A DNA stretch of 10,260 nt from a virus. This document shows, in pieces, positions 1 to 10,260 of this stretch. Within the stretch, counting starts at the first letter, position 1. Each line of letters opens with the position of its first letter. Under the pieces are notes generated by a model, which ran no database searches, had not been told where the DNA came from, and was given only the letters and a program-made list of their open reading frames with translations. The position numbers and the translations under genes were made by a program. Location: the UHGV virus genome UHGV-0142988; one strand, written 5' to 3'.

Positions 1-38
1 CGAGTCTCGTGGGCTTCGGAGATGTGTATAAGAGACAG
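1..38. other. Sequencing adapter remnant (Nextera/Tn5 mosaic end, one-base indel) at contig start; artefact
   Basis: Positions 20-38 read AGATGTGTATAAGAGACAG, the 19-bp Tn5 mosaic end, preceded by GTCTCGTGGGCT(T)CGG, the Nextera read-2 adapter with one extra T. Confidence 0.85.
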
Positions 39-42
39 CTCA

Positions 43-238
43 TGTCCGCCCCACACGGACACTTCCCCAAATTTGTCCGTCCACCACGGACACTCACAGA
101 CACAGATGTCCTCTGTACGCACACAACGGACAAAATAATAGTGCAATATACACAACTATTACTGGAAATCAATCCAATAATTGTGCACATTGCACTATAA
201 AAATCAGTTATTTTAGAACATTATGCTCTTGTGTCCGT
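43..238. repeat. Terminal-region short repeats TGTCCG(T)/ACGGACA: two hairpin-capable inverted pairs (~43-61, ~74-92) plus solo copies (~126-132, ~232-238)
   Basis: Six copies of the 6-7-mer within ~200 bp directly after the adapter; the first two pairs are inverted repeats with 5-7 nt spacers. Confidence 0.6.
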
Positions 239-269
239 GTGTGAGAGACACATACAGGGGTGATGTTTT

Positions 270-283
270 CGAACATGTGTTCT
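270..283. promoter_or_regulatory. Candidate LexA/DinR SOS box (Cheo-box-like, cGAAC-atgt-GTTCt), with an overlapping GTTC-tat-GAAC
   Basis: GAAC-N4-GTTC with 5' flanking C, ~17 bp upstream of the predicted -35. This is the only such site I found in the window. Confidence 0.5.
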
Positions 284-299
284 ATGAACAATATGGACT

Positions 300-328
300 T
301 TGAATAAATCTAAATAATTACATATAAT
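300..328 (+). promoter_or_regulatory. Candidate sigma-A-type promoter for the rightward early operon
   Basis: TTGAAT (-35, ~300-305), 17-bp spacer, TATAAT (-10, ~323-328); ~30 bp upstream of a GAGGTG RBS and the ATG at 359. Confidence 0.5.
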
Positions 329-358
329 AATGTTATCAAATGAAAGAGAGGTGAACAG

Positions 359-508
359 ATGACAGATTACGAAGAAAGCTACAAAAATTATCTTGCATGG
401 CTCACTCCACGTGAGCTATTGCATGAATACAAGATCATGCGTTTACCGTGGCGTTATCGGGAACGAAAATGGATCAAAGAAGAAATAGAAAGTAGGTGTG
501 TGTACTAA
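359..508 (+). CDS. Small hypothetical protein (49 aa; MTDYEESYKNYLAWL...), below the ORF-track length cutoff
   Basis: ATG with GAGGTG RBS ~7 nt upstream; first ORF after the promoter; read by eye. Confidence 0.35.
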   Translation: MTDYEESYKNYLAWLTPRELLHEYKIMRLPWRYRERKWIKEEIESRCVY

Positions 509-602
509 TGTTGGATGCTATATTGTGGTTTGGTTTTGGTGCTATATTAATTTTTCCGTATGGAGTTTGGTGTGGGGCAAAATGGTCAGGAGGATATAAG
601 AA

Positions 603-806
603 ATGAAAAATTATTGTGATATATGTTTTACATGTAATGATGCTGAAGTTTGTCATTCATGTAGCCAGCCAGAGATTTGTTCCGAATTTAAAAAGTGTTT
701 TGATCATAAGCCTTATATAATGTGGGAGAAAATGACAAGTTTTGACGATATCATGAGATGTGTTGAGAAATGGAGGGTGTACAATGAGCAGACCGTTAAA
801 CAGTAA
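603..806 (+). CDS. Small Cys-rich protein (67 aa), possible zinc-ribbon-like
   Basis: AGGAGG RBS ~7 nt upstream of the ATG; CxxCxxC...CxxC spacing in the N-terminal 32 residues (seven Cys). Confidence 0.55.
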   Translation: MKNYCDICFTCNDAEVCHSCSQPEICSEFKKCFDHKPYIMWEKMTSFDDIMRCVEKWRVYNEQTVKQ

Positions 807-1041
807 GAAGTCATGGTATAAGGTATATATCAAAGAATTAAATACACCGAATATCATTAAAAGTCAGTGTAAATATAAATGCGATTATCTATTAGTAAAG
901 GCATACACAGGATCAGTCGCAATGGCAATCGTGCAGGACTACGTTGTCGAGTTTGAAGAAAATTTCCGTCCTGTATACTACAACAAATTGGAGGGAGGTG
1001 TTCCTATTGACAACAAAAAAGTCTTATTTGAAGAAGAGTAA
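784..1041 (+). CDS. Hypothetical protein (86 aa from internal ATG; track ORF begins at 760)
   Basis: GGAGGG RBS ~6 nt upstream of the ATG at 784; overlaps the 3' end of the previous gene; protein-like composition. Confidence 0.45.
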   Translation: MSRPLNSKKSWYKVYIKELNTPNIIKSQCKYKCDYLLVKAYTGSVAMAIVQDYVVEFEENFRPVYYNKLEGGVPIDNKKVLFEEE

Positions 1042-1648
1042 ACCACAAGGTCTTATAAGAACAAAAGACGATTATACGCCGCTTGCTCTCGAGTTAACAT
1101 GGGATATGAAAGACGTTAGAAAAGAGTATTCACGGTTAAGATCAATCTGGCGTAAACGTTATGAAAGATTACTGAAATCTGACTATAAAGATATCAACCT
1201 TGTAACGGATCGACCGATCCAACGTTACAAGCAGTTGAAAGATATAACAAGTGATAGAGAACTCTATCACTTGTTATCTGAACTATCAACTATTATAGGA
1301 TCAGATCGAACTACAGTAACAGGATTGAAAAAACGGGAAAAAGAGCAGATGGAACACATCAACGATGTGTATGGAACAGAGTTAAAAACGCACGAAGATT
1401 TATTAAATTTTGGACGTTTCATGGAACAGTTACGGGATTTTGCATCTGATAGAATATACGATTCTGATTTTGCAGTTGATTTATATTCTGATGGTGAAAA
1501 GCTGAGTACGGGCAAAATGTTAGAGCTATACAAGGAATTTTTGAAAACTGGATCACGTAACATCGAAAAATTGAAATCTGGCATAGCAAAGAAAGAAAAA
1601 GCGAAACGTCAGAAGAGGAAAGCAGGCAAACGTAAACGTAGGAGGTAA
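1007..1648 (+). CDS. Candidate terminal protein (~213 aa if started at TTG 1007; track ORF 944..1648)
   Basis: Directly upstream of, and translationally coupled to, the protein-primed DNA polymerase (its stop lies in the polymerase RBS). Strongly basic C-terminal tail KKEKAKRQKRKAGKRKRRR. GGAGGGAGGTG lies ~6 nt upstream of TTG 1007. Function is from synteny, not homology. Confidence 0.45.
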   Translation: MTTKKSYLKKSKPQGLIRTKDDYTPLALELTWDMKDVRKEYSRLRSIWRKRYERLLKSDYKDINLVTDRPIQRYKQLKDITSDRELYHLLSELSTIIGSDRTTVTGLKKREKEQMEHINDVYGTELKTHEDLLNFGRFMEQLRDFASDRIYDSDFAVDLYSDGEKLSTGKMLELYKEFLKTGSRNIEKLKSGIAKKEKAKRQKRKAGKRKRRR

Positions 1649-1651
1649 CAC

Positions 1652-3733
1652 ATGGAAAATCTGTATACTATTGACACATATAATTATAATAGAATACGGA
1701 ATTTACCATGTTTACATGATACTAGGTCTAACAAAGGAAGTAAAAAAGCAAAAGGTTATAAAAATTGTCTGTGTGCTTTCGATATCGAAACAACTAGATT
1801 GGAAGATATCGAGCAGTCAATAATGTATATCTGGCAGTTTTCAATTCTTTTTCTTGATGATTTACATGTTGATACGATAATTGGAAGAACGTGGACAGAA
1901 TTTGAGTTATTTCTTGATAATCTTATGAATGACGATAACTATGCATATTATATGATTTTTGTTCATAATCTTTCATATGAATTTCAGTTTTTGCGTGGTA
2001 TATATACATTTTCACCGGATGAAGTTTTTGCCATAAAATCACGTAGAATATTGAAATGTGAAATGTTAGAGCGTTTCGAGTTTCGTTGCTCATATTTACA
2101 AACTAATATGTCACTAAATACGTTTACCTCAAAAATGAAAGTAAAACATCAGAAATTATCTGGTGAAAAATTCGATTATAGTAAAAAGCGTTTTCCATGG
2201 ACAGAACTAACCGATTATGAAATAAAGTATAGTACATACGACACGATTGGACTAGTTGAAGCAATGTATAAACGTATGATACTGTCAAATGACAATCTAT
2301 ATACACTACCATTAACGTCAACCGGTTATGTACGTCGTGAAACGAAAAAAGCCATGTATGGTTGGTCACGAAAACACAAGGATATATTTCCCACTATAGA
2401 TGTTTTCGATCTGCTAGAGGAGGCGTTTCGGGGCGGAGATACTCACGCTAACCGTTATTACTCAGGAACCGTGATACGTGCATATGGTAAAAATATTCTA
2501 GGAATCGGTTCATATGATAGGTCATCCTCTTATCCTGACGTTGTGTTGAATTGTGTTTTCCCGATGACACGTTTTGTATATATCGGATCAATAGATGAAT
2601 CTGATATAGATAAGAAACTGGATAGAGGAAAAGCACTCTTATTCCGATGTAAAATAACAGGTATTGAGCAGATCGACAAGTATTACGGATCGCCCTATAT
2701 TTCATATTCAAAATGTAGAAATGTTTCATGTGAAACACTTGACAATGGGCGTATTTTAAGTGCTGACTATATTGAAATAACGCTCACTGATATTGATTAT
2801 GAGATAATGAAACGTGAGTACAAATGGAAACATTTTGAAATAACAGAGTGTTATGAGAGTAAATACGGAGCATTGCCAGAACCGTTGAAAGACATTTTCC
2901 GTAAATATTATACTGACAAAACAGAGTTAAAAGGAATCGTGGAACAGGAACTTTTCTACAACTTGCAAAAGGCTTTGCTTAACGCTGGCTATGGAATGAT
3001 GGTTCAATCACCCGTGAAACAGTCGTTAATATTTACAGAATCGGCAGAAAACATATATACAGTTGATGAAAATGTTTCACGTGAAACATTACTCACTAAA
3101 TATAACAGAACAGCTTTCTTGCCTTATCAATGGGGTGTTTGGGTAACAGCATGGGCACGCCAGCGATTGAAAGAGGGTATAAACATAGTTGGAGATCGTT
3201 ACGTTTACAGCGATACGGATTCAGTAAAATATATAAAAGTAAGAGGTGATAATATTGACGAGTTATTTGATAGATACAATTCTGAGAGAAAAGAGCAAAG
3301 TATCTCCAATTCCGCATACGCAACAGACCGTTATGGCGTTAAACATTATATGGGGGTGTATGAATTCGAGGATACGTATACTGAATTCTCCACCATTGGT
3401 ACAAAAAAATATGTCTATAGAACTAAAGATGGAAAACTACACGCAACAATCGCAGGAGTTAATAAAAAGCTTGCACCGGATGAGTTGGAAGAACATGGAG
3501 GAATTGAAGCTTTCAAAACTGGATTTACCTTTTTACGATCAGGAGGAACTGAAAGCGTGTACAATGACGTTCCTTATGGGGATTACACCGTGGAAAATCA
3601 TGTTTTAAAAATTACACAAAATGTAGTTATCAGACCGTCAACTTACACAATAGGAATAACAGATGAGTACCGTAGGATTTTGGCAGACGCAAGAACATTA
3701 AAAGAATTTAAATATACTTTTGACAAAAATTAA
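1652..3733 (+). CDS. Protein-primed family-B DNA polymerase (693 aa)
   Basis: AGGAGG RBS. Exo I FDIETT, Exo II HNLSYEF, Exo III YSTYDTIGLVEAM, motif A YDRSSSYP (Dx2SLYP-like), motif B KALLNAGYG (Kx3NSxYG-like), motif C YSDTDS, KxY in TIGTKKYVY. Confidence 0.95.
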   Translation: MENLYTIDTYNYNRIRNLPCLHDTRSNKGSKKAKGYKNCLCAFDIETTRLEDIEQSIMYIWQFSILFLDDLHVDTIIGRTWTEFELFLDNLMNDDNYAYYMIFVHNLSYEFQFLRGIYTFSPDEVFAIKSRRILKCEMLERFEFRCSYLQTNMSLNTFTSKMKVKHQKLSGEKFDYSKKRFPWTELTDYEIKYSTYDTIGLVEAMYKRMILSNDNLYTLPLTSTGYVRRETKKAMYGWSRKHKDIFPTIDVFDLLEEAFRGGDTHANRYYSGTVIRAYGKNILGIGSYDRSSSYPDVVLNCVFPMTRFVYIGSIDESDIDKKLDRGKALLFRCKITGIEQIDKYYGSPYISYSKCRNVSCETLDNGRILSADYIEITLTDIDYEIMKREYKWKHFEITECYESKYGALPEPLKDIFRKYYTDKTELKGIVEQELFYNLQKALLNAGYGMMVQSPVKQSLIFTESAENIYTVDENVSRETLLTKYNRTAFLPYQWGVWVTAWARQRLKEGINIVGDRYVYSDTDSVKYIKVRGDNIDELFDRYNSERKEQSISNSAYATDRYGVKHYMGVYEFEDTYTEFSTIGTKKYVYRTKDGKLHATIAGVNKKLAPDELEEHGGIEAFKTGFTFLRSGGTESVYNDVPYGDYTVENHVLKITQNVVIRPSTYTIGITDEYRRILADARTLKEFKYTFDKN

Positions 3734-3781
3734 CATATGTGTTATAATTCATGTAAAGAGATATTACAAGGAGGTGATAAT

Positions 3782-4036
3782 ATGAAAATTACACGTTCAT
3801 TAACAGTTAACAAGATCAACGTTATCTGCTACGATCCTGAGAATAAGTGTGAGTTTGTACAGGAAGTTGGTTTGATCGGAAATCTTACTGATGAGCAGAT
3901 CAGCAAAGAGATTAAAAAAAGAAATTTTGGAATTGTTATTGATTGGGAAAGAACATCAGAAGAAACAAAATTATACGGAATGGATGCCGAAGTGTTTTTA
4001 AAAAATGCAATCATTATTAAAGAAAAGGAGAACTAA
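3782..4036 (+). CDS. Hypothetical small protein (84 aa from internal ATG)
   Basis: AGGAGGTG RBS ~6 nt upstream of the ATG at 3782; sits between polymerase and ATPase genes. Confidence 0.55.
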   Translation: MKITRSLTVNKINVICYDPENKCEFVQEVGLIGNLTDEQISKEIKKRNFGIVIDWERTSEETKLYGMDAEVFLKNAIIIKEKEN

Positions 4037-4039
4037 ATC

Positions 4040-4474
4040 ATGGCAAAGAATTATACTATCATTAAATCATCGGGAAACCTTGATACCTATTCAGAATATG
4101 AACTCATCGAGTCACCTGCAATCGTTTCACTTAAAAACGTAGAAAACAAAGGACTTATCTGTGTTGGAGCGTGGGTGAAATATCTTACCACCGACAATAT
4201 CGGAAATGAAATAACCTGCATTTCAGTGCAGGACGCAAACACAGGAGAGGTATTCTCAGGTCAGTCAGCACCTTTCAGAGAAACATTCGAGGCTGTTACC
4301 GATCGTATTTCTGACATGGACGAAGCTCCAGAAATGTTTTTCATCGAGGTTCTTCATAGACAGTCAAAGTCAGGTCGTGATTATCTTATGTGCGCACTTG
4401 TTTCCCCGGATCGTGCTTTTGCCCGCATGGGATATACTGAAAAGAACATTCCTATGCCAGAGCCCCAGAAATAA
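4040..4474 (+). CDS. Hypothetical protein (144 aa); an SSB or DNA-binding role is only a positional guess
   Basis: AAGGAGA RBS before the ATG at 4040; tightly packed with neighbours; no motif recognised. Confidence 0.6.
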   Translation: MAKNYTIIKSSGNLDTYSEYELIESPAIVSLKNVENKGLICVGAWVKYLTTDNIGNEITCISVQDANTGEVFSGQSAPFRETFEAVTDRISDMDEAPEMFFIEVLHRQSKSGRDYLMCALVSPDRAFARMGYTEKNIPMPEPQK

Positions 4475-4475
4475 T

Positions 4476-5525
4476 ATGTTATCGTTATACGAAAATAGCG
4501 GGTATCTATCGATACCCGCTATTTTAGGATATGGACAAAAGTTTAATTACATCTGGGGTGGCCGTGGTACGGGGAAAACTTACGGTGCTCTTAAATACTG
4601 TATTGAACATAAAAAAATTTTTGCTTATATGCGATCATTGCAAACACAAATTGATATGATTAAAATTCCAGAACTTTCACCTTTTAAAAAATTAAATCGT
4701 GATTTAGGATGGTCAATATATCCGAAAAGTGTCGGGAAAAATATTGCTGTGTATTATAATGCAGAAATTGACGAAAATGGTAAAATAAAATATACTGGAG
4801 ATATACTCGGTTATTCCATAGCGTTAAATACATTTGCCAATTTACGAGGTTTTGATGCATCAGACGTTGAGATAGGAATATATGATGAATTTATCCCCGA
4901 AAAACGTGAACGCAAAGTTGAAAATGCTGGATATGCTTTTAAAAACGCATATGAAACAATGAATCGAAACCGTGAACTTGATGGAATTAATCCGATACAG
5001 TTTTTATTGTTTTCTAATTCTGAAAGTTTATCATGTGATATGTTTATAGAGAATAATTTAATGGAAAAAGTATCGAGCATGGATATTAATAAACAATCTA
5101 TGTCTATTATACGTGATAGAGGTATTGGACTTTTTAACTTGTATGATTCGCCGATTTCTGAAAAGAAAAAAGACACAGCTCTGTATAAAATGTCTGGATC
5201 AGATTCAGCATTTAACAGGATGGCACTAGGAAATGAATTTTATTCCGCTGATTATTCAGGAATTAGAAGCATGAACATTAAAGAACTGATACCACTATGT
5301 AAAATGGACGCTATTACAATATATCAGCACAAGAGAAAAGACTTAATATATGTAACACGGCACAGCTCTGGTACACCGCCAGAGTATTCCAATACAGATA
5401 AGGATGTAAAAGCTTTCAGACGAGATTTTATTTATTTATGGGATATGTATTTATCAAACAAGGTGCTGTTTGAGGATATCACAAGCAAGTCCCTATTTGA
5501 GATTTATTTTAAAAATAAATATTGA
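4476..5525 (+). CDS. P-loop ATPase, phi29 gp16-like DNA encapsidation ATPase candidate (349 aa from the ATG right after the upstream stop)
   Basis: Walker A GGRGTGKT near the N-terminus and Walker B EIGIYDEF about 110 residues later. Size and motif spacing fit phage packaging ATPases of the ASCE/FtsK-HerA class. Confidence 0.75.
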   Translation: MLSLYENSGYLSIPAILGYGQKFNYIWGGRGTGKTYGALKYCIEHKKIFAYMRSLQTQIDMIKIPELSPFKKLNRDLGWSIYPKSVGKNIAVYYNAEIDENGKIKYTGDILGYSIALNTFANLRGFDASDVEIGIYDEFIPEKRERKVENAGYAFKNAYETMNRNRELDGINPIQFLLFSNSESLSCDMFIENNLMEKVSSMDINKQSMSIIRDRGIGLFNLYDSPISEKKKDTALYKMSGSDSAFNRMALGNEFYSADYSGIRSMNIKELIPLCKMDAITIYQHKRKDLIYVTRHSSGTPPEYSNTDKDVKAFRRDFIYLWDMYLSNKVLFEDITSKSLFEIYFKNKY

Positions 5526-5671
5526 TTTTGTGTTTTATATCTGATATTATCTTTAATAGAAAGACAAGTGTTCGTGGCACACGTACAACACGTCGGGAGC
5601 GTGGGATCATAAGAATCCAATGTGCATGAGCATGTACAGCTCAAGAATTTGTAACACTTAATCTTTCATCA

Positions 5672-5708
5672 CATATGCAGAGTGTCAAAGCCTGCATATG
5701 TTTTGTTT
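5672..5708 (+). terminator. Candidate intrinsic terminator after the ATPase operon
   Basis: 9-bp stem CATATGCAG / CTGCATATG with an 11-nt loop, followed by TTTTGTTT. Confidence 0.55.
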
Positions 5709-5754
5709 CACGTGAAACATTTATCACCTTTCTTTAATGTTTCACGTGAAACAT
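5704..5754. promoter_or_regulatory. Tandem palindromic operator-like sites: TGTTTCACGTGAAACA (~5704-5719) and ATGTTTCACGTGAAACAT (~5737-5754)
   Basis: Two perfect 16-18-bp palindromes 33 bp apart, directly upstream of a TATAAT-like element (~5774-5779) and the RBS of the gene at 5791. Confidence 0.6.
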
Positions 5755-5790
5755 GTTATATGTTGTGCTAATATATAATGGAGGTGAAAT

Positions 5791-5988
5791 ATGGACGTTA
5801 ACTCATTATCAACTCTTATCAGTAACATTGGTGTGCCTTGCGCCTGCCTTATTGCGACTTTCTATCTTTGGCAGAAAGAAACGGATTCTCACAAAGAAGA
5901 AATGAAACGCATGACAGACGCACTCAACAACAACACTCAGGCACTTACAAAACTCACAGAACATATCACAGGAAGTGAAAAAAAATGA
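5791..5988 (+). CDS. Small single-pass membrane protein, holin-like (65 aa)
   Basis: GGAGGTG RBS; one hydrophobic segment (LSTLISNIGVPCACLIATFYLW) then a charged C-terminal tail; ATGA overlap with the next gene. Confidence 0.55.
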   Translation: MDVNSLSTLISNIGVPCACLIATFYLWQKETDSHKEEMKRMTDALNNNTQALTKLTEHITGSEKK

Positions 5989-6230
5989 CGATTAACTACA
6001 ACAAAAATATCAGAGGTGTGTATATCGTCGCAACGAACACAGGGCCTCTGATGGTCAGGGCAGAGCCTAGTACAGACGGAACAGTTATCGCAGAAATGCC
6101 GAAAAACACAAAATGCATCTGTCTAGGATGCTATTCTGGAAACTGGTATGCAGTCATTTACGAACATGACAGTATCATTTCCACCGGCTTTTCTCACAAA
6201 AATTATCTCAGGAGGGATTATAAGATATGA
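5985..6230 (+). CDS. Stand-alone SH3b-like cell-wall-binding domain protein (81 aa)
   Basis: Pattern GVYIVATNTGPLMVRAEPSTDGTVIAEMPKNTKCICLG...GNWYAVIYEH...GFSHKNYLRR resembles bacterial SH3 domains; no catalytic domain attached. Confidence 0.6.
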   Translation: MTINYNKNIRGVYIVATNTGPLMVRAEPSTDGTVIAEMPKNTKCICLGCYSGNWYAVIYEHDSIISTGFSHKNYLRRDYKI

Positions 6231-6421
6231 CGTTAGACAACTTAATTACACTCATTTCAGCAGGATTCACGAAAGAAGAGATCCTCACAATGTCAGGTAC
6301 AGTCACCCAGCGTGCCCCACAGCCACAGCCACAGCCACAGCCACAGCCACAGCCACAGCCACAGCCACAGCCACAAAATACAAAGCAGAAATTGCAAAAT
6401 CAAGATCTAAATACAAATTAA
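6227..6421 (+). CDS. Small protein with a (PQ)10 linker-like repeat (64 aa)
   Basis: ATGA overlap with the upstream gene; contains the in-frame hexamer repeat. Confidence 0.5.
   Translation: MTLDNLITLISAGFTKEEILTMSGTVTQRAPQPQPQPQPQPQPQPQPQPQNTKQKLQNQDLNTN
6317..6375. repeat. Tandem hexanucleotide repeat (CCACAG) x ~9.8
   Basis: Perfect tandem copies read directly in the sequence; encodes PQPQ... in the 6227 ORF frame. Confidence 0.95.
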
Positions 6422-6608
6422 GTGATATTTTAATTCGTGTAGAAAAAAATAGCCTTTATTTTTATTTGCGTAAATGATTCCTTTACTTTTAGCACTAAAA
6501 GCAAGAAAACTATAATTTTATAATTTTCTTTGTTTAAGGCCAGTAATGTTTTCGGCGTTTCAATTGTCCTCGACGAAGGCCGCTTCCGCGACCTTATCTA
6601 GCCCGTGC

Positions 6609-6965
6609 TCATTGAGAACGATCAACTACCATGTATGTTGGTTGACACAGGCTGCCGCGTTCCTGTAACCAGTAGTAATCAAGATCCGCAACACGCATAT
6701 CCAACCCCGAATCCACACGATTGATCTGTAACCGCAGCCCTACAGTATCTTTGTACGATAAACCAGATTTAACATTGTACTTGTACTTAACCCCGCTTTC
6801 TTCTTCAAAAGATTTGAGATAAGGGGGGATTTGCTTCTGAATTTCTTTCAAACAAATAACTTCCCCATCAATTACGAACGGCTTTTCAGTTTTACCGTCA
6901 GGAATAGTAGCCGCAATTGTGGTTAATGGAACTATCGACAACAGTACTGATAATGCTCTTTTCAT
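6609..6965 (-). CDS. Secreted small protein with N-terminal signal peptide (118 aa from the MKRALS start)
   Basis: AAGGGGA RBS before the internal ATG; MKRALSVLLSIVPLTTIAA is signal-peptide-like with no lipobox Cys; ~20 nt downstream of the partner gene. Confidence 0.6.
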   Translation of the reverse strand: MKRALSVLLSIVPLTTIAATIPDGKTEKPFVIDGEVICLKEIQKQIPPYLKSFEEESGVKYKYNVKSGLSYKDTVGLRLQINRVDSGLDMRVADLDYYWLQERGSLCQPTYMVVDRSQ

Positions 6966-6987
6966 CTGTTCTTCCCCTTGAATATAA

Positions 6988-7599
6988 TCATTGTTTAGAA
7001 CAAATTTGTGTAATGGTTGCATTATGGTTAAATTCAACATCAATTACTTTTATAGTATTATCATTAAGTACAGATACAAAATAATTACTTGACGAATTTC
7101 CGTACTTCCTTGAACCATCTGCTGCAATCTTGTTGAATTTAGCAGTATACACACTATCTTTATCGCCGGGAATTGGCATTCGACTGATTAATTCATTATC
7201 GGAAATAGTATAATAAATTAAAATTCCTTTATCTGAATAGTAACCTGAATCGCTTTTTGTTCCCTGTCGAGTTTGTATTATTGCATCGAACTTATCGCAT
7301 TTATAAACATTGGTTTTGGCCTTTTCAGTACTGGTAGACGTTGAAGCCTTTACATCAGTACTTTTATCTTGTGAAACAACCCCGGAACCGATACCTACCG
7401 AAACGACAAAGACAATAAAACTCATGCCTAACGACGTAATCAAAGTACGGAACTTTCCCCGACCTTTATTTCTGGAATAGTTTGAAACTTTCCTGAAAGT
7501 AAGTACTGCAAGGATCACACAAATGATGAAAACGACAAGCCCGGCCATAAAATCCCTCAAACGTTGTGTATCAAAGGCAATCATAGTATCACTTCGCAA
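6988..7599 (-). CDS. Two-TM membrane protein with Ser/Thr-rich ~130-aa extracytoplasmic domain (203 aa, or 198 aa from ATG 7584)
   Basis: Hydrophobic segments AGLVVFIICVILAVLTF and LITSLGMSFIVFVVSVGIGSGVV separated by a basic loop; TTG start in the track with an in-frame ATG 5 codons later. Confidence 0.6.
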   Translation of the reverse strand: MRSDTMIAFDTQRLRDFMAGLVVFIICVILAVLTFRKVSNYSRNKGRGKFRTLITSLGMSFIVFVVSVGIGSGVVSQDKSTDVKASTSTSTEKAKTNVYKCDKFDAIIQTRQGTKSDSGYYSDKGILIYYTISDNELISRMPIPGDKDSVYTAKFNKIAADGSRKYGNSSSNYFVSVLNDNTIKVIDVEFNHNATITQICSKQ

Positions 7600-7601
7600 T
7601 A

Positions 7602-7624
7602 CATTGATCGATTAAAGCGATCAA
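7602..7624. promoter_or_regulatory. Palindrome ATTGATCG-attaaag-CGATCAAT in a divergent control region (7600-7700) that also carries three ATCAAT copies
   Basis: 8-bp inverted repeat just upstream of the leftward gene start and upstream of the rightward leader. Confidence 0.35.
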
Positions 7625-7699
7625 TTTTTGATTTTCGATCGGTTAAATCTATCAATATCTATTAATTGAAGACAAATCAATAGGTAAAAACGATCAGAC

Positions 7700-8100
7700 G
7701 TTGGTCAGTACTTCGGAAACACCAGAAGTATGGTTTGGGTCTGCCGTTTAAACGCCCTCAGAAAACCGCTAAGGTCTCTTTATCGCATATGGCTTGGGAT
7801 TTCAGCCTTTGGCTAAAATCGCTTTCAGGGGGGCTTCTTGTGCGTTTTGTCGGGAACACCATCATGGAGGGGGATAAATCGGATCGAAGTCGCTTCGCTC
7901 TGGTCAGTACTGGAAGGGTTAGCTTATCTGGCGAGGGAAGATGAATTGCCAGGCTTCATGAAGATGGTTGGTTTTGTGGACAAGAAGAACTGCCGTTTTG
8001 AGTATTCCCCCTCACACCCAACAAACCTACCCATTAGCAAGGGGGAGTACTTTCTCGTAGTATACAGAACGAATAAATTCTTTGTATACTTCCGTTTTAT
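7700..8100 (+). ncRNA. Candidate structured 5' leader / cis-regulatory RNA (class unassigned)
   Basis: ~400 nt without a convincing ORF, visibly more GC than flanks. 12-bp stem (~8001-8012 / 8040-8051, one G-U pair) with a C/A-rich 27-nt loop, then an AT-rich hairpin (~8059-8090) plus U-tract just before the downstream start. The 11-mer TGGTCAGTACT occurs twice (~7703, ~7901). Confidence 0.35.
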
Positions 8101-8111
8101 CCTAAAGCGAT

Positions 8112-8801
8112 TTGATTATGGACGAGAATAATAAAGAAGTTATTGAAATAAGACCAGAAGATAAGGACTTTTTCGCAGAATTTATTGATTGTGAAGGTCC
8201 AATTATCCAAGATTCAATTGATCATAAAAAAATCACCCTCGCACTTGATAAAGCCCACGACATAAGAAAGTTTGAAATAGATCTCTATTGGAAGCGTGCT
8301 ACATACTTCTTCGCATTCTTCACTGTAATAACAGCTGCATTTGGTTATTTGTTCACCCATGACAACTATACTTTCTTAGCCCCTGCACTTGCGATCATTG
8401 GTTCTGTTTTTGCTTTATGTTTTTGTTATGTGAATATCGGTAGTAAGTATTGGCAAGAAAACTGGGAGTTTATAATTGATAAAATTGAATATTATGTCAC
8501 AGGAAACCTTTATAAACTTTTCTTCTTCGAAAACCATAGAACCAAACGCCCATCAGTCACTAAGATTAATATATTTCTAAGCAAGCTAATTATAGCTACA
8601 TGGTACGCTTGCTTTATACTTTCCATGCACCAGATATGGAATCAAAGCATGGTATTAAATGTCTCTTATATTATCCTTACCATATATAGCACTGGAACGA
8701 CATTATATTACTGCGATAAAACTGTTGCAGACATATCGAACAATGATAAAGAATCACCACGATTCTTTAGATTCAGAAATCCTAATTACATAAAATCATA
8801 A
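8112..8801 (+). CDS. Multi-pass (about 4 TM) membrane protein with ~60-aa soluble N-terminal domain (229 aa; probable ATG at 8118)
   Basis: Four hydrophobic segments (ATYFFAFFTVITAAFGYLF; FLAPALAIIGSVFALCFCYVNI; INIFLSKLIIATWYACFILSMH; MVLNVSYIILTIYSTGTTLYY); weak RBS. Confidence 0.65.
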   Translation: MIMDENNKEVIEIRPEDKDFFAEFIDCEGPIIQDSIDHKKITLALDKAHDIRKFEIDLYWKRATYFFAFFTVITAAFGYLFTHDNYTFLAPALAIIGSVFALCFCYVNIGSKYWQENWEFIIDKIEYYVTGNLYKLFFFENHRTKRPSVTKINIFLSKLIIATWYACFILSMHQIWNQSMVLNVSYIILTIYSTGTTLYYCDKTVADISNNDKESPRFFRFRNPNYIKS

Positions 8802-8805
8802 ACAT

Positions 8806-8824
8806 GGGGGCATTTGATGCCCCT
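8806..8824 (+). terminator. Candidate terminator hairpin GGGGCAT-ttg-ATGCCCC just after the stop codon
   Basis: Perfect 7-bp GC-rich stem with 3-nt loop; the downstream U-tract is weak on plus and better on the minus strand. Confidence 0.45.
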
Positions 8825-9065
8825 TGTAAATTGATAATCCGACCTAAAAACACTTTGAGTACTTCATTTGTCAGTACTGTTATCTGTTTGAGCGAAAGCG
8901 AGTAACGGCTTTGGCGTGCTTTCGAGTACTGCGAGAAAAACGCAAAGTTACGATCTGATATTTGGTTTTTATAGAGACTAACAAGCAAAGCGAAGTTAGG
9001 CTCTTTAGATACTGAATATCAGTAAGGCTAATACATTCAAAATATCAGGTGAAAGGCAATATTAT

Positions 9066-9194
9066 ATTAAGTTACGGTTATTCACCCCACTGCATAAAAC
9101 AAGAATAACCTACTGATTTTACGGACTTTTATTTGAATAATAATTCACTAATAATCATGATAACCGTATTTCTTAGTTTTAAGTTACGGTTATA
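9066..9194. repeat. 15-bp direct repeat TTAAGTTACGGTTAT (~9067-9081 and ~9179-9193) with an inverted partial copy ATAACCGTA (~9161-9169)
   Basis: Read directly; lies in a convergent intergenic region abutting the 3' end of the gene at 9202. Confidence 0.7.
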
Positions 9195-9201
9195 GGTACG
9201 A

Positions 9202-9669
9202 TTAAACAATGGTTCGTAGATATGCAATCAGATCTTTCGCTGAGGCATTACTGTTCAATAATTCCTGTACTGCGTTCTTCTGTTCGTCGGTTAATGGCTT
9301 ACCAGGCAATGCTTTCTTTAGTCCACATAGCGTACCACCTTCTTCTACAAACTTATCCAATGCTTTAGCAACTGCGGTACAGGCTAATTTGTACTTCTCG
9401 ATAGATGATTCACTTGCTGCAAATTTCTTCATCTGATCTGAACGGGTTAAGGTAAGATAATACTTAACCTGTACTTTTGAAAGCTCTGTAGCGTGTTTGA
9501 CGATGTAGAAGACATCTTTAACAGGTAACTTGTACTTTCCCAATGATTTACACTCTTGAATCGTCTGGTTAATTATTAGAGTTGCTTCTGATGTTAGGCC
9601 ACTGTAAGTAACACGTTTTAGTGCTTCTTCTAACTTTTTATTGTTATAAATCCTTTCTTTTTTTGCCAT
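9202..9669 (-). CDS. Hypothetical protein (155 aa)
   Basis: Clean ORF with ATG start; protein-like composition; no motif recognised. Confidence 0.6.
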   Translation of the reverse strand: MAKKERIYNNKKLEEALKRVTYSGLTSEATLIINQTIQECKSLGKYKLPVKDVFYIVKHATELSKVQVKYYLTLTRSDQMKKFAASESSIEKYKLACTAVAKALDKFVEEGGTLCGLKKALPGKPLTDEQKNAVQELLNSNASAKDLIAYLRTIV

Positions 9670-9759
9670 GATAAATACCCCTATGGAAGATGTTAATTAA
9701 TATTGGCCTGATGTATTCCTAATACTCAGGCTTTTTATTTAAGAAGAAAATGGGTGGGG

Positions 9760-10026
9760 TTATACTCCACGTACCTTCTTGAACCATTCACGATACTCTG
9801 GCACTTTATTTTTGCGTAAATTGCTAATGAAATCTTGATCGCAATTAACTTTAAGTAAATTACAAATCCTAGCACTTGTCATATCACTTAGTAGGATATT
9901 CTCGTACTGAGAGAATGTTAGTTGAATGAAATTAACCTTTTCTTTCTTTCGAACTGATTTGTTCAATGACTTCCTATTAGTCCTGATTTTATTTTTTGTT
10001 TTTATTTTACCGTTTTTCTTTGACAT
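9760..10026 (-). CDS. Small basic protein with possible C-terminal helix-turn-helix (88 aa)
   Basis: GGAGTG RBS before the ATG; very basic N-terminus (KKNGKIKTKNKIRTNRK) followed by an HTH-like segment. Confidence 0.55.
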   Translation of the reverse strand: MSKKNGKIKTKNKIRTNRKSLNKSVRKKEKVNFIQLTFSQYENILLSDMTSARICNLLKVNCDQDFISNLRKNKVPEYREWFKKVRGV

Positions 10027-10260
10027 TTTGTCACTCCTCTAAATTAAAATTCATCTCATGGTTAACCTCCTACGGCTGTTGTTTATGTTCGATTGGCTAT
10101 ATGTTAACGGGCAAAATTGCCCCAATCAAGGAATAGTTGCAACTTTTTCTTGACAAGATCATTACTATTCAAGTCAAAAAATCATATATCATTTAGGCAC
10201 TATCTTTGGGTAATGACTCCAACTTATTGATAGTGTTTTATGTTCAGATAATGCCCGATG

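Follow-up and report, generated by a model that had tools for sequence, protein, structure and literature searches.

A predicted gp16-type packaging ATPase and a neighbouring pRNA-shaped RNA in a phi29-like gut podophage contig

In phage phi29, a prohead RNA (pRNA) physically links the prohead and the packaging ATPase gp16, and the gp16 residues that contact pRNA have been reported (PMC7672431). The same study states that the first appearance of pRNAs is unknown and associates pRNA with the reduction of the gp16 C-terminal domain. To current knowledge, pRNA is unique to phi29 and related Bacillus phages, according to a 2024 review in which 2115 phi29-related sequences were surveyed and frequent gene rearrangements were noted (PMC11476376), and 12 new pRNAs were found in 2025 using solely the pRNA models of phi29, GA1, and DLc1 (PMC12670572). 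Here we analyzed UHGV virus genome UHGV-0142988, an entire metagenomic contig of 10,260 nucleotides (ENA ERZ1755413 NODE_2955; hereafter the window). Its gene at 4476-5525 is predicted from sequence and fold to encode the packaging motor ATPase of a ~14 kb protein-primed, phi29-like human-gut podophage (probability about 0.9), and the gap behind this gene contains an RNA with the topology of pRNA, of which we found no earlier report for these gut phages in open-access papers and bioRxiv.

The packaging ATPase and its gene order

The initial annotation, made from the letters of the window, had proposed a packaging-type ATPase at 4476-5525 with an arginine inside the Walker A motif GGRGTGKT, and both the open reading frame (ORF) and the motif at residues 28-35 (codons ggt ggc cgt ggt acg ggg aaa act) are confirmed (Table 1). 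An in-frame GTG at 4377 was rejected as the start codon; it overlaps the preceding gene for a single-stranded DNA-binding (SSB)-like protein, and the gene calls of relatives begin at the Met equivalent to 4476. Conservation was assessed in two alignments, one of 15 sequences including phi29 gp16 and one of 32 homologues down to 41% identity. Residues R30, G33, and K34 are invariant in both, so the Walker A motif is not a chance match. The Walker B Asp-Glu pair and the arginine finger are invariant as well, as are R166 (gp16 R148) and N181 (gp16 N158, the Asn of the SN motif) in both alignments. The Walker A arginine had been taken as a feature of phi29-type encapsidation ATPases; it does align with gp16 R26, but it is not specific to phi29, since an arginine at position 3 or 4 of this motif is present in nearly all viral terminases, as in Sf6 (GG-R24-GSGKS; PMC6379665). 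Open-access papers and bioRxiv yielded no specific role for gp16 R26, and the arginine is interpreted here from general work on the "arginine toggle."

Profile, sequence, and structure searches all place the protein with packaging ATPases. In Pfam, PF05894 (Podovirus_Gp16) is the sole match at E ≤ 0.1, with 35.1 bits against a gathering cutoff of 25 over residues 10-263, and in PHROGs only the terminase family phrog_2150 is matched (3.8e-20). Phi29 gp16 is the best match of a sequence search against the PDB, both as the full-length protein (7jqq) and as its N-terminal domain (5hd9). An AlphaFold model calculated with 32 homologues reached a predicted local distance difference test (pLDDT) score of 89.6. 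With this model, the best Foldseek match in the PDB is asccphi28 gp11 (E 1e-14, template modeling (TM) score ~0.63, 370-390 aligned columns), followed by phi29 gp16 (5e-11) and then by ATPase domains of large terminases (TerL), including P74-26. The alignment with gp11 and gp16 covers the whole model, down to the short C-terminal domain, and the model thus has their two-domain architecture. This architecture, the profile score above cutoff, the arginine and lysine of Walker A, the Asp-Glu pair of Walker B, and the arginine finger are sequence and fold features expected of a gp16-type ATPase, and all of them are present. Annotated phage matches in tblastn are named "encapsidation protein," "DNA packaging protein," "terminase," or "ATPase" (the last in DLc1) and include AD70P2/P3 (35% identity), Cp-1, and phi29-like phages of Enterococcus and Bacillus; several metagenomic records are unannotated. 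There are 1961 homologous ATPase clusters on contigs of at most ~14.6 kb, and nearly all among those listed carry PF05894.

The ATPase gene is the last of five consecutive genes that begin at 998, all of which lie on the + strand with gaps of 1-3 nt, so that it is co-oriented with and tightly linked to the polymerase gene, as the initial annotation had described; the TAA of the preceding ORF ends one base before its ATG. The proposal that this order belongs to small protein-primed podoviruses rather than to phi29 also holds, as the ATPase gene follows the polymerase and small genes in AD70P2/P3 and in every metagenomic relative examined, including L003 (MT835998) and L109 (relatives are designated here by L and a number). 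Phi29 gene 16, unlike the window ATPase gene, sits at the end of the late operon. Complete relatives are mostly one-stranded and encode, in this order, small genes, a terminal-protein-like protein, a family B DNA polymerase (PolB), a p6-like protein, an SSB-like protein, and the ATPase, followed by a gap of ~130-330 nt and the late genes. The late genes comprise a holin-like gene, an SH3 protein gene (in most), a repeat/scaffold-like gene, the major capsid protein (MCP) gene, other virion and lysis (lysozyme) genes, and the connector, lower collar, and tail genes. In L003 and L109, the structural genes lie on the strand opposite to that of the replication-ATPase block. Phi29_MCP and Phage_connector families were identified in relatives with 41-52% ATPase identity, and PHROG head and connector families in the close relative L015. 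Complete relatives also carry inverted terminal repeats (ITRs) along with the terminal-protein-like, PolB, SSB, and ATPase genes. The setting is that of a protein-primed linear genome, with an ITR and PolB in the window and the MCP and connector seen in relatives.

For the window ATPase, family membership, motif conservation, fold, and a conserved gene order are shown, and from these we infer ring assembly and packaging activity. This two-domain ATPase of the additional strand, catalytic glutamate (ASCE) type in the gp16 family would assemble as a ring at the portal vertex of the prohead, with the arginine finger R164 acting in trans, and would thereby drive the unit-length genome, capped by the terminal protein, into the capsid.

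Several observations weigh against this assignment. Identity to gp16 is just 21-23% (E 1.5e-4 against the PDB), and the gp16 C-terminal pRNA-contact residues K236, K239, and F240 are not kept, with only W254 having an aromatic counterpart. The window contains no capsid or portal gene, and the structural context was therefore taken from relatives. We infer the "early" timing of the ATPase transcription unit from host-type consensus promoters and gene spacing; moreover, a conserved hairpin within the ATPase codons (4491-4526), followed by a U-rich stretch, could attenuate transcription or control translation into the gene. The initial annotation had kept a partition or replication role as an alternative and had named best profile matches to such ATPases as the result that would refute packaging. 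The opposite was obtained (PF05894, gp16, and gp11), and neither a profile nor a fold of that kind was matched. A ParA-like partition ATPase or a replication ATPase of a linear replicon would suit the position of the gene in the replication block, directly after the SSB-like gene, but we consider it very improbable. The ParA/CbiA, AAA, DnaA/DnaC, and helicase families are all without a match at E ≤ 0.1 in Pfam, the Walker A motif GGRGTGKT is not the deviant KGGxxK[ST] of ParA, and the fold matches are packaging ATPases, with helicase-like ASCE folds appearing only at E ≥ 0.01 and TM ~0.3. Partition, replication-initiator, and FtsK/HerA signals are lacking both in Pfam (E ≤ 0.1) and among the PDB fold matches. 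In complete relatives, no other ATPase or terminase was matched (partial PHROG scan of L015; precomputed Pfam for the others), and an ATPase of the window type would therefore be their sole packaging enzyme. Because neither the profile nor the fold results point to partition or replication, the packaging assignment stands.

An equally slim chance is left to a conventional large terminase with an active nuclease or to a tectivirus-type (FtsK/HerA, P9-like) packaging ATPase. The Walker A motif is almost the same as GGRGSGKS of Sf6 TerL (PMC6379665), and TerL ATPase domains are the next-best fold matches; nevertheless, the 349 residues fit gp16 and gp11 end to end, and the Terminase_6, Terminase_3, nuclease, and FtsK/HerA families are without a match in Pfam. 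Both comparisons that had been proposed, with phi29 gp16 and with tectiviral P9-like ATPases, thus have an answer: the former is the best solved structure by sequence, and for the latter neither a FtsK/HerA profile nor such a fold was found. In addition, the genome has ITRs and a protein-primed polymerase, which make concatemer cutting unnecessary. Even less probable is that the window represents an element of the satellite or plasmid type, with a packaging ATPase but lacking capsid genes. Capsid, portal, and tail genes are indeed all absent across the 10.26 kb contig, but, judged from its sequence, the contig is a phage/E. coli assembly chimera after 6375, which accounts for the missing capsid genes. 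The likeness to related phages breaks off at 6375, and 6376-10208 is an E. coli chromosomal island (99.9-100% identity) of low GC content with a RipA/8xMP membrane-protein gene at 8112-8801, followed by an IS1 end (terminal repeat) at 10204-10260. The switch point lies inside a (CCACAG)n hexanucleotide run (6317-6375) that the PQ-repeat gene of the phage shares with an E. coli gene. Positions 6376-10260 were accordingly ruled out as phage genes or as part of a capsid-less element, and in relatives with 89-93% DNA identity as far as the junction, the sequence runs on into MCP, connector, and tail genes.

A three-way-junction RNA behind the ATPase gene

The 265-nt gap 3' of the ATPase gene is conserved above the expectation for a spacer. 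Positions 5522-5708 contain a promoter, a three-way-junction RNA of ~110 nt, and a terminator-like hairpin, and the RNA segment folds with z = -3.2 to -5.1. The two ends of the RNA are paired by an A-like helix, inside which a C-like helix with a bulge on its 5' side only, an E-like hairpin, a variable extra hairpin, and a D-like hairpin were identified (Table 1). Covariation was tested in 73 close relatives with a 40-pair structure and 500 shuffles. In this test, 99.1% of cells are paired and 24 of the 40 pairs change on both sides, which none of the 500 shuffles matches; when the 3' partners were slid by 1-3 columns as a control, only 28-47% remained paired. The bulge GUAC is complementary to GUAC in the D-like loop, with 100% of cells paired and three of four pairs changing on both sides, and in sublineages this pairing becomes GUGC/GCAC or GGGUA/UACCC. 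Such a pairing could form either a pseudoknot or a contact between molecules.

The same RNA layout is present in at least 17 lineages of 12-14.6 kb gut phages, which include AD70P2/P3 and in which the ATPases of the distant lineages are 35-55% identical. The 17 lineages have 15 distinct bulge/loop pairing sequences, and the distant ones include GGUC/GACC, GGAC/GUCC, GACA/UGUC, AAUCA/UGAUU, AUCC/GGAU, AGACA/UGUCU, GUAAC/GUUAC, AGGC/GCCU, GUGAU/AUCAC, GCUA/UAGC, and ACACA/UGUGU. The E-like hairpin loop is almost invariant (CGGRA), the C-like stem is 4-6 bp and the D-like stem 2-6 bp long, and unconstrained folding gives the junction in most lineages. In the cultured AD70P3, the RNA (L001 6292-6378, minus strand; AUCC/GGAU) lies in a 123-nt gap after the ATPase gene. 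In L003 (RNA at 1035-1135) and L109 (RNA at 5016-5093, minus strand), it stays with the late operon, away from the ATPase gene.

Complementarity between bulge and loop averages 4.65 nt in cognate combinations versus 2.37 nt in non-cognate ones, and none of 20000 permutations reached the observed total. Because the best bulge/loop complementarity was kept for ambiguous parses, both results are biased upward, which is addressed by genome-wide and shuffled-genome controls. A strict descriptor gave one match per genome in 15 of the 17 lineages, always at this locus and in the same orientation, with no further match in 419 kb, and it gave seven matches in 1.26 Mb of dinucleotide-shuffled genomes. 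A covariance model of the close relatives (R1) yielded weak matches in distant lineages (E 0.08-2), which are not proof alone; five of the six lie immediately behind the ATPase gene in the same orientation, and the sixth (L095) is antisense inside the ATPase gene. MAFFT and RNAalifold applied to 16 lineages recovered the E-like and D-like hairpins alone. As sequence alignment misplaces several lineages, the cross-lineage structure rests on our own descriptor and parsing scripts.

The elements that characterize pRNA are found in this RNA, namely, a three-way junction closed by an A helix, a C-E arm with a bulge on the 5' side, a D hairpin, and a covarying complementarity between bulge and D loop, the feature by which pRNAs form a ring. 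Both protein partners of a phi29-type pRNA, a gp16-type ATPase and a Phage_connector protein, are present in these phages (the connector from relatives). By analogy, a pRNA-like role of the RNA at 5558-5668 in packaging has, in our estimate, slightly better than even odds, and the packaging motor would then dock on the prohead through this three-way-junction RNA. The broader proposal, that the RNA of at least 17 lineages is a genuine prohead RNA that forms a ring via bulge and D loop and tethers a gp16-type ATPase to the portal vertex, is favored to a similarly narrow extent. Weighing against both, Rfam RF00044 was not detected in positions 1-6400 of the window (E ≤ 1) or in five relatives (E ≤ 10), in a search for which phi29 pRNA served as the positive control (145 bits). 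Since this model finds nothing, the claim is that the RNA works like pRNA and not that it is a member of that family. Other Rfam families gave only chance-level microRNA, leader, sRNA, and riboswitch matches in the window and the five relatives, far below gathering scores.

An alternative, which we regard as possible but rather unlikely, is that the RNA acts in cis as a 5' leader of the late operon (riboswitch-like, or involved in antitermination or attenuation), in which bulge and loop would form an intramolecular pseudoknot with no role in packaging. Two observations favor such a leader at the expense of a pRNA-like role: the RNA always lies immediately before the co-oriented holin gene and late operon, also in L003 and L109, whose ATPase gene is at another place, and in several lineages the first late start codon is just 17-40 nt past the RNA, without an obvious second promoter. 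The closing helix is followed by a U-run in several lineages, as in a terminator, and the similar lengths of the C-like and D-like stems would make an intramolecular contact sterically possible. In the window lineage, however, the RNA has its own promoter and a terminator-like hairpin, behind which a separate palindromic, operator-like region precedes the late genes; for these reasons it looks like an independent gene. Its helix order is the same as that of phi29 pRNA in the Rfam consensus, the phages carry the proteins that are the partners of pRNA in phi29, and no Rfam riboswitch or leader family is matched. A pRNA-like role is therefore narrowly preferred here, and the probability left over by these two readings goes to functions of another kind.

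The ATPase alone is a routine gp16-family annotation, and its gene order is already present in the deposited AD70P2/P3 genomes and in the 2024 survey of phi29-related sequences (PMC11476376); the point of importance is the neighbouring pRNA-shaped RNA that Rfam does not detect. If the pRNA-like role is true, pRNA-dependent packaging would be widespread, and perhaps ancestral, among phi29-like phages, having diverged too far for the Rfam model. The presence of a pRNA-shaped RNA in a very large clade (the 1961 ATPase clusters, among them a cultured member) would make the question of pRNA origin testable. The clade would also hold many natural variants of the ring-forming loop pair, a motif with uses in RNA nanotechnology. 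Should it be a leader instead, this very abundant group of gut phages would have a novel structured RNA with a regulatory role.

Neighbouring genes, signals, and the left end of the contig

The product of the terminal-protein-like gene has no family match in Pfam or PHROGs. The polymerase of the window has none either, though orthologues at the same position match PF03175 (DNA_pol_B_2), and on its motifs it is a strongly diverged protein-primed PolB. The p6-like gene starts at 3737 in both the mechanical ORF and the database gene call; the ATG at 3782, behind the ribosome-binding site AGGAGGTGA, is probably the real start codon, and the gene call of a relative is 84 amino acids long. The SSB-like protein itself is without a significant match in Pfam and PHROGs, and the PF17427 matches of its orthologues are weak in L104, L105, and L110 and unmarked in L109.

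A sigma-70-type promoter with all 12 consensus positions overlaps the polymerase stop codon and is kept in 68 of 71 relatives. It likely starts a transcription unit of the p6-like, SSB-like, and ATPase genes, between which no terminator was predicted. The ATPase gene is the last cistron of this unit, which follows the genes for the terminal protein and polymerase without a break, and co-production of the ATPase with the replication proteins is therefore most likely. In the hairpin within the ATPase gene, two stem positions change on both sides (CG/TA) among 51 distinct relatives, the G-Y and I-P codons stay complementary, and equivalent hairpins are present in L104-L106. A second strong promoter, that of the small RNA, begins at the very end of the ATPase gene, in its last codon and stop codon; it reads TTGACT/TATAAT in most relatives, and an equivalent TTGACA-type promoter is located upstream of the RNA in 13 of the 17 lineages.

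Downstream of the RNA, the 3' hairpin is also present in L104 and L105, with a strongly covarying stem and an almost invariant loop. Because its loop is nearly invariant and it lacks a U-run behind it in L084-L086, it looks like more than a terminator and is possibly a protein-binding site or a second domain. In L102 (~4836-4880) and at the equivalent place in L103, the RNA is followed by a mini-helix that is closed by GCGGAAG/CTTCCGT and has a tRNA-like T arm (GTAGGTTCGATTCCTAC); ARAGORN calls no tRNA there. The window contains four copies of the 16-bp palindrome TGTTTCACGTGAAACA, where 0.01 would be expected, two of them ahead of the first late gene and two inside the polymerase gene (2722-2737 and 3073-3088); the palindrome also precedes the late genes in L097-L099 and L104. 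These sites probably serve as operators for a phage regulator that controls late transcription.

At the left end, a Nextera transposase adapter was read directly in bases 1-38 and gives rise to a spurious "GDVYKRQ" ORF. Phage sequence begins at 39 with an ITR of ~245 bp, and the left contig end is therefore probably the physical end of the genome. The ITR is 95.9% identical over 245 nt to the reverse-complemented right end of L009, and near relatives, which are contigs of 13.5-14.3 kb with ~89-93% DNA identity to the window, are matched at both ends by it.

Table 1. Features predicted in the window (positions refer to the 10,260-nt contig).
Feature	Position	Strand	Basis or remark
Inverted terminal repeat, probable true left end of the linear phage genome	39..283	.	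matches left ends of relatives and reverse-complemented right end of L009
Terminal-protein-like gene	998..1648	+	position only, directly upstream of polymerase, as in phi29-type order
Protein-primed family B DNA polymerase	1652..3733	+	693-aa ORF with DIETT and YSDTDS motifs
Sigma-70-type promoter TTGACA-17-TATAAT with TG	3720..3748	+	12/12 consensus positions; overlaps polymerase stop codon
p6-like dsDNA-binding protein gene	3782..4036 (3737 in gene calls)	+	PHROG 6370 "dsDNA binding protein," 1.5e-5; Pfam p6 weak, 0.018
SSB-like protein gene (p5 position)	4040..4474	+	orthologues at that position match PF17427 Phi29_Phage_SSB
gp16-type DNA encapsidation (packaging) ATPase	4476..5525	+	349 aa, ATG to TGA
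Hairpin of ~15 bp in ATPase codons 6-17, then AUUUUA	4491..4526	+	inverted repeat I1
Walker A GGRGTGKT, residues 28-35	4557..4580	+	R30 = gp16 R26, K34 = gp16 K30
Walker B Asp137 and catalytic Glu138 (IYDEF)	4884..4889	+	gp16 D118/E119
Arg164 in RNRE	4965..4967	+	gp16 R146 (FRNRE), trans-acting arginine finger
Small-RNA promoter TTGATT-17-TG-TATTAT	5522..5550	+	begins in ATPase last codon and stop codon
Three-way-junction RNA, pRNA topology	5558..5668	+	folding, covariation, lineage comparison
A-like closing helix	5560-5571/5654-5666	+	pairs the two ends of the RNA
C-like 5-bp helix GCACA/UGUGC	5577-5581/5621-5625	+	
7-nt bulge CGUACAA, 5' side only	5582-5588	+	
Bulge GUAC, pairs with D-like loop GUAC	5583..5586 with 5634..5637	+	covariation
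E-like hairpin, loop CGGGA	5589-5603	+	
Extra hairpin, variable	5604-5618	+	
D-like hairpin GAGC-AUGUACA-GCUC	5628-5642	+	
3' hairpin (5672-5700), loop GUGUCAnAGC, then UUUUGUUU	5672..5708	+	terminator-like; covarying stem
Two copies of 16-bp palindrome TGTTTCACGTGAAACA	5704-5719 and 5738-5753	.	ahead of first late gene
Holin-like first gene of late (structural/lysis) module	5791..5988	+	L015 orthologue matches PHROG 4898 holin, 1.4e-4

Comparison with known systems

Large terminases such as Sf6 gp2 and P74-26 TerL share with the window ATPase the ASCE fold and the Walker A arginine at position 3 (PMC6379665); they differ in having an active RNase H-like nuclease domain of their own, in being larger, and in packaging concatemers by headful or cos mechanisms, whereas no nuclease family was matched by Pfam in the 349-residue protein. 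The closest full-length fold is that of gp11 from Lactococcus phage asccphi28 (7jq6, 7jq7, and 7jqp), although the identity is 15-17% and this phage belongs to another lineage with another genome. Phi29 gp16 (7jqq and 5hd9; PF05894) is of the same family and two-domain size class (332 residues versus 349 here), and its Walker A Arg/Lys, Walker B Asp-Glu, arginine finger, and SN-motif Asn all align with invariant residues. The resemblance extends to the genomes, with ITRs and a protein-primed PolB in the window and phi29-type MCP and connector in its relatives. Apart from the low identity and the C-terminal contact residues that are not kept, the difference lies in the position of the genes, the window gene being in the replication block behind the SSB-like gene and gene 16 being late.

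The window-type RNA has the same order of elements as phi29 pRNA (RF00044), that is, A helix, junction, C, 5' bulge, E, and D, and a Watson-Crick complementarity of 3-6 nt (mostly 4-6 nt) between bulge and D loop that covaries between lineages. It differs from phi29 pRNA in escaping the Rfam model, in its shorter A helix (~9-15 bp), in its conserved E loop CGGRA, and in the position of its gene, which is upstream of the late operon, whereas that of phi29 is at the left end of the genome. For the window-type RNA, intermolecular pairing, prohead binding, and a role in packaging are putative.

Among described phages, Amedibacillus phage AD70P3 (Guelinviridae in GenBank; also AD70P2) offers a counterpart to the whole locus. 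Its genome is smaller (12.2 kb), its RNA is without the extra hairpin, and it has been cultured, whereas the window phage is known from metagenomes alone. Its "DNA packaging protein" WAX05411.1 is 35% identical to the window ATPase over 88% of the length; polymerase, small genes, ATPase, and structural genes follow each other on one strand, and the same kind of RNA is located in the gap behind the ATPase gene.

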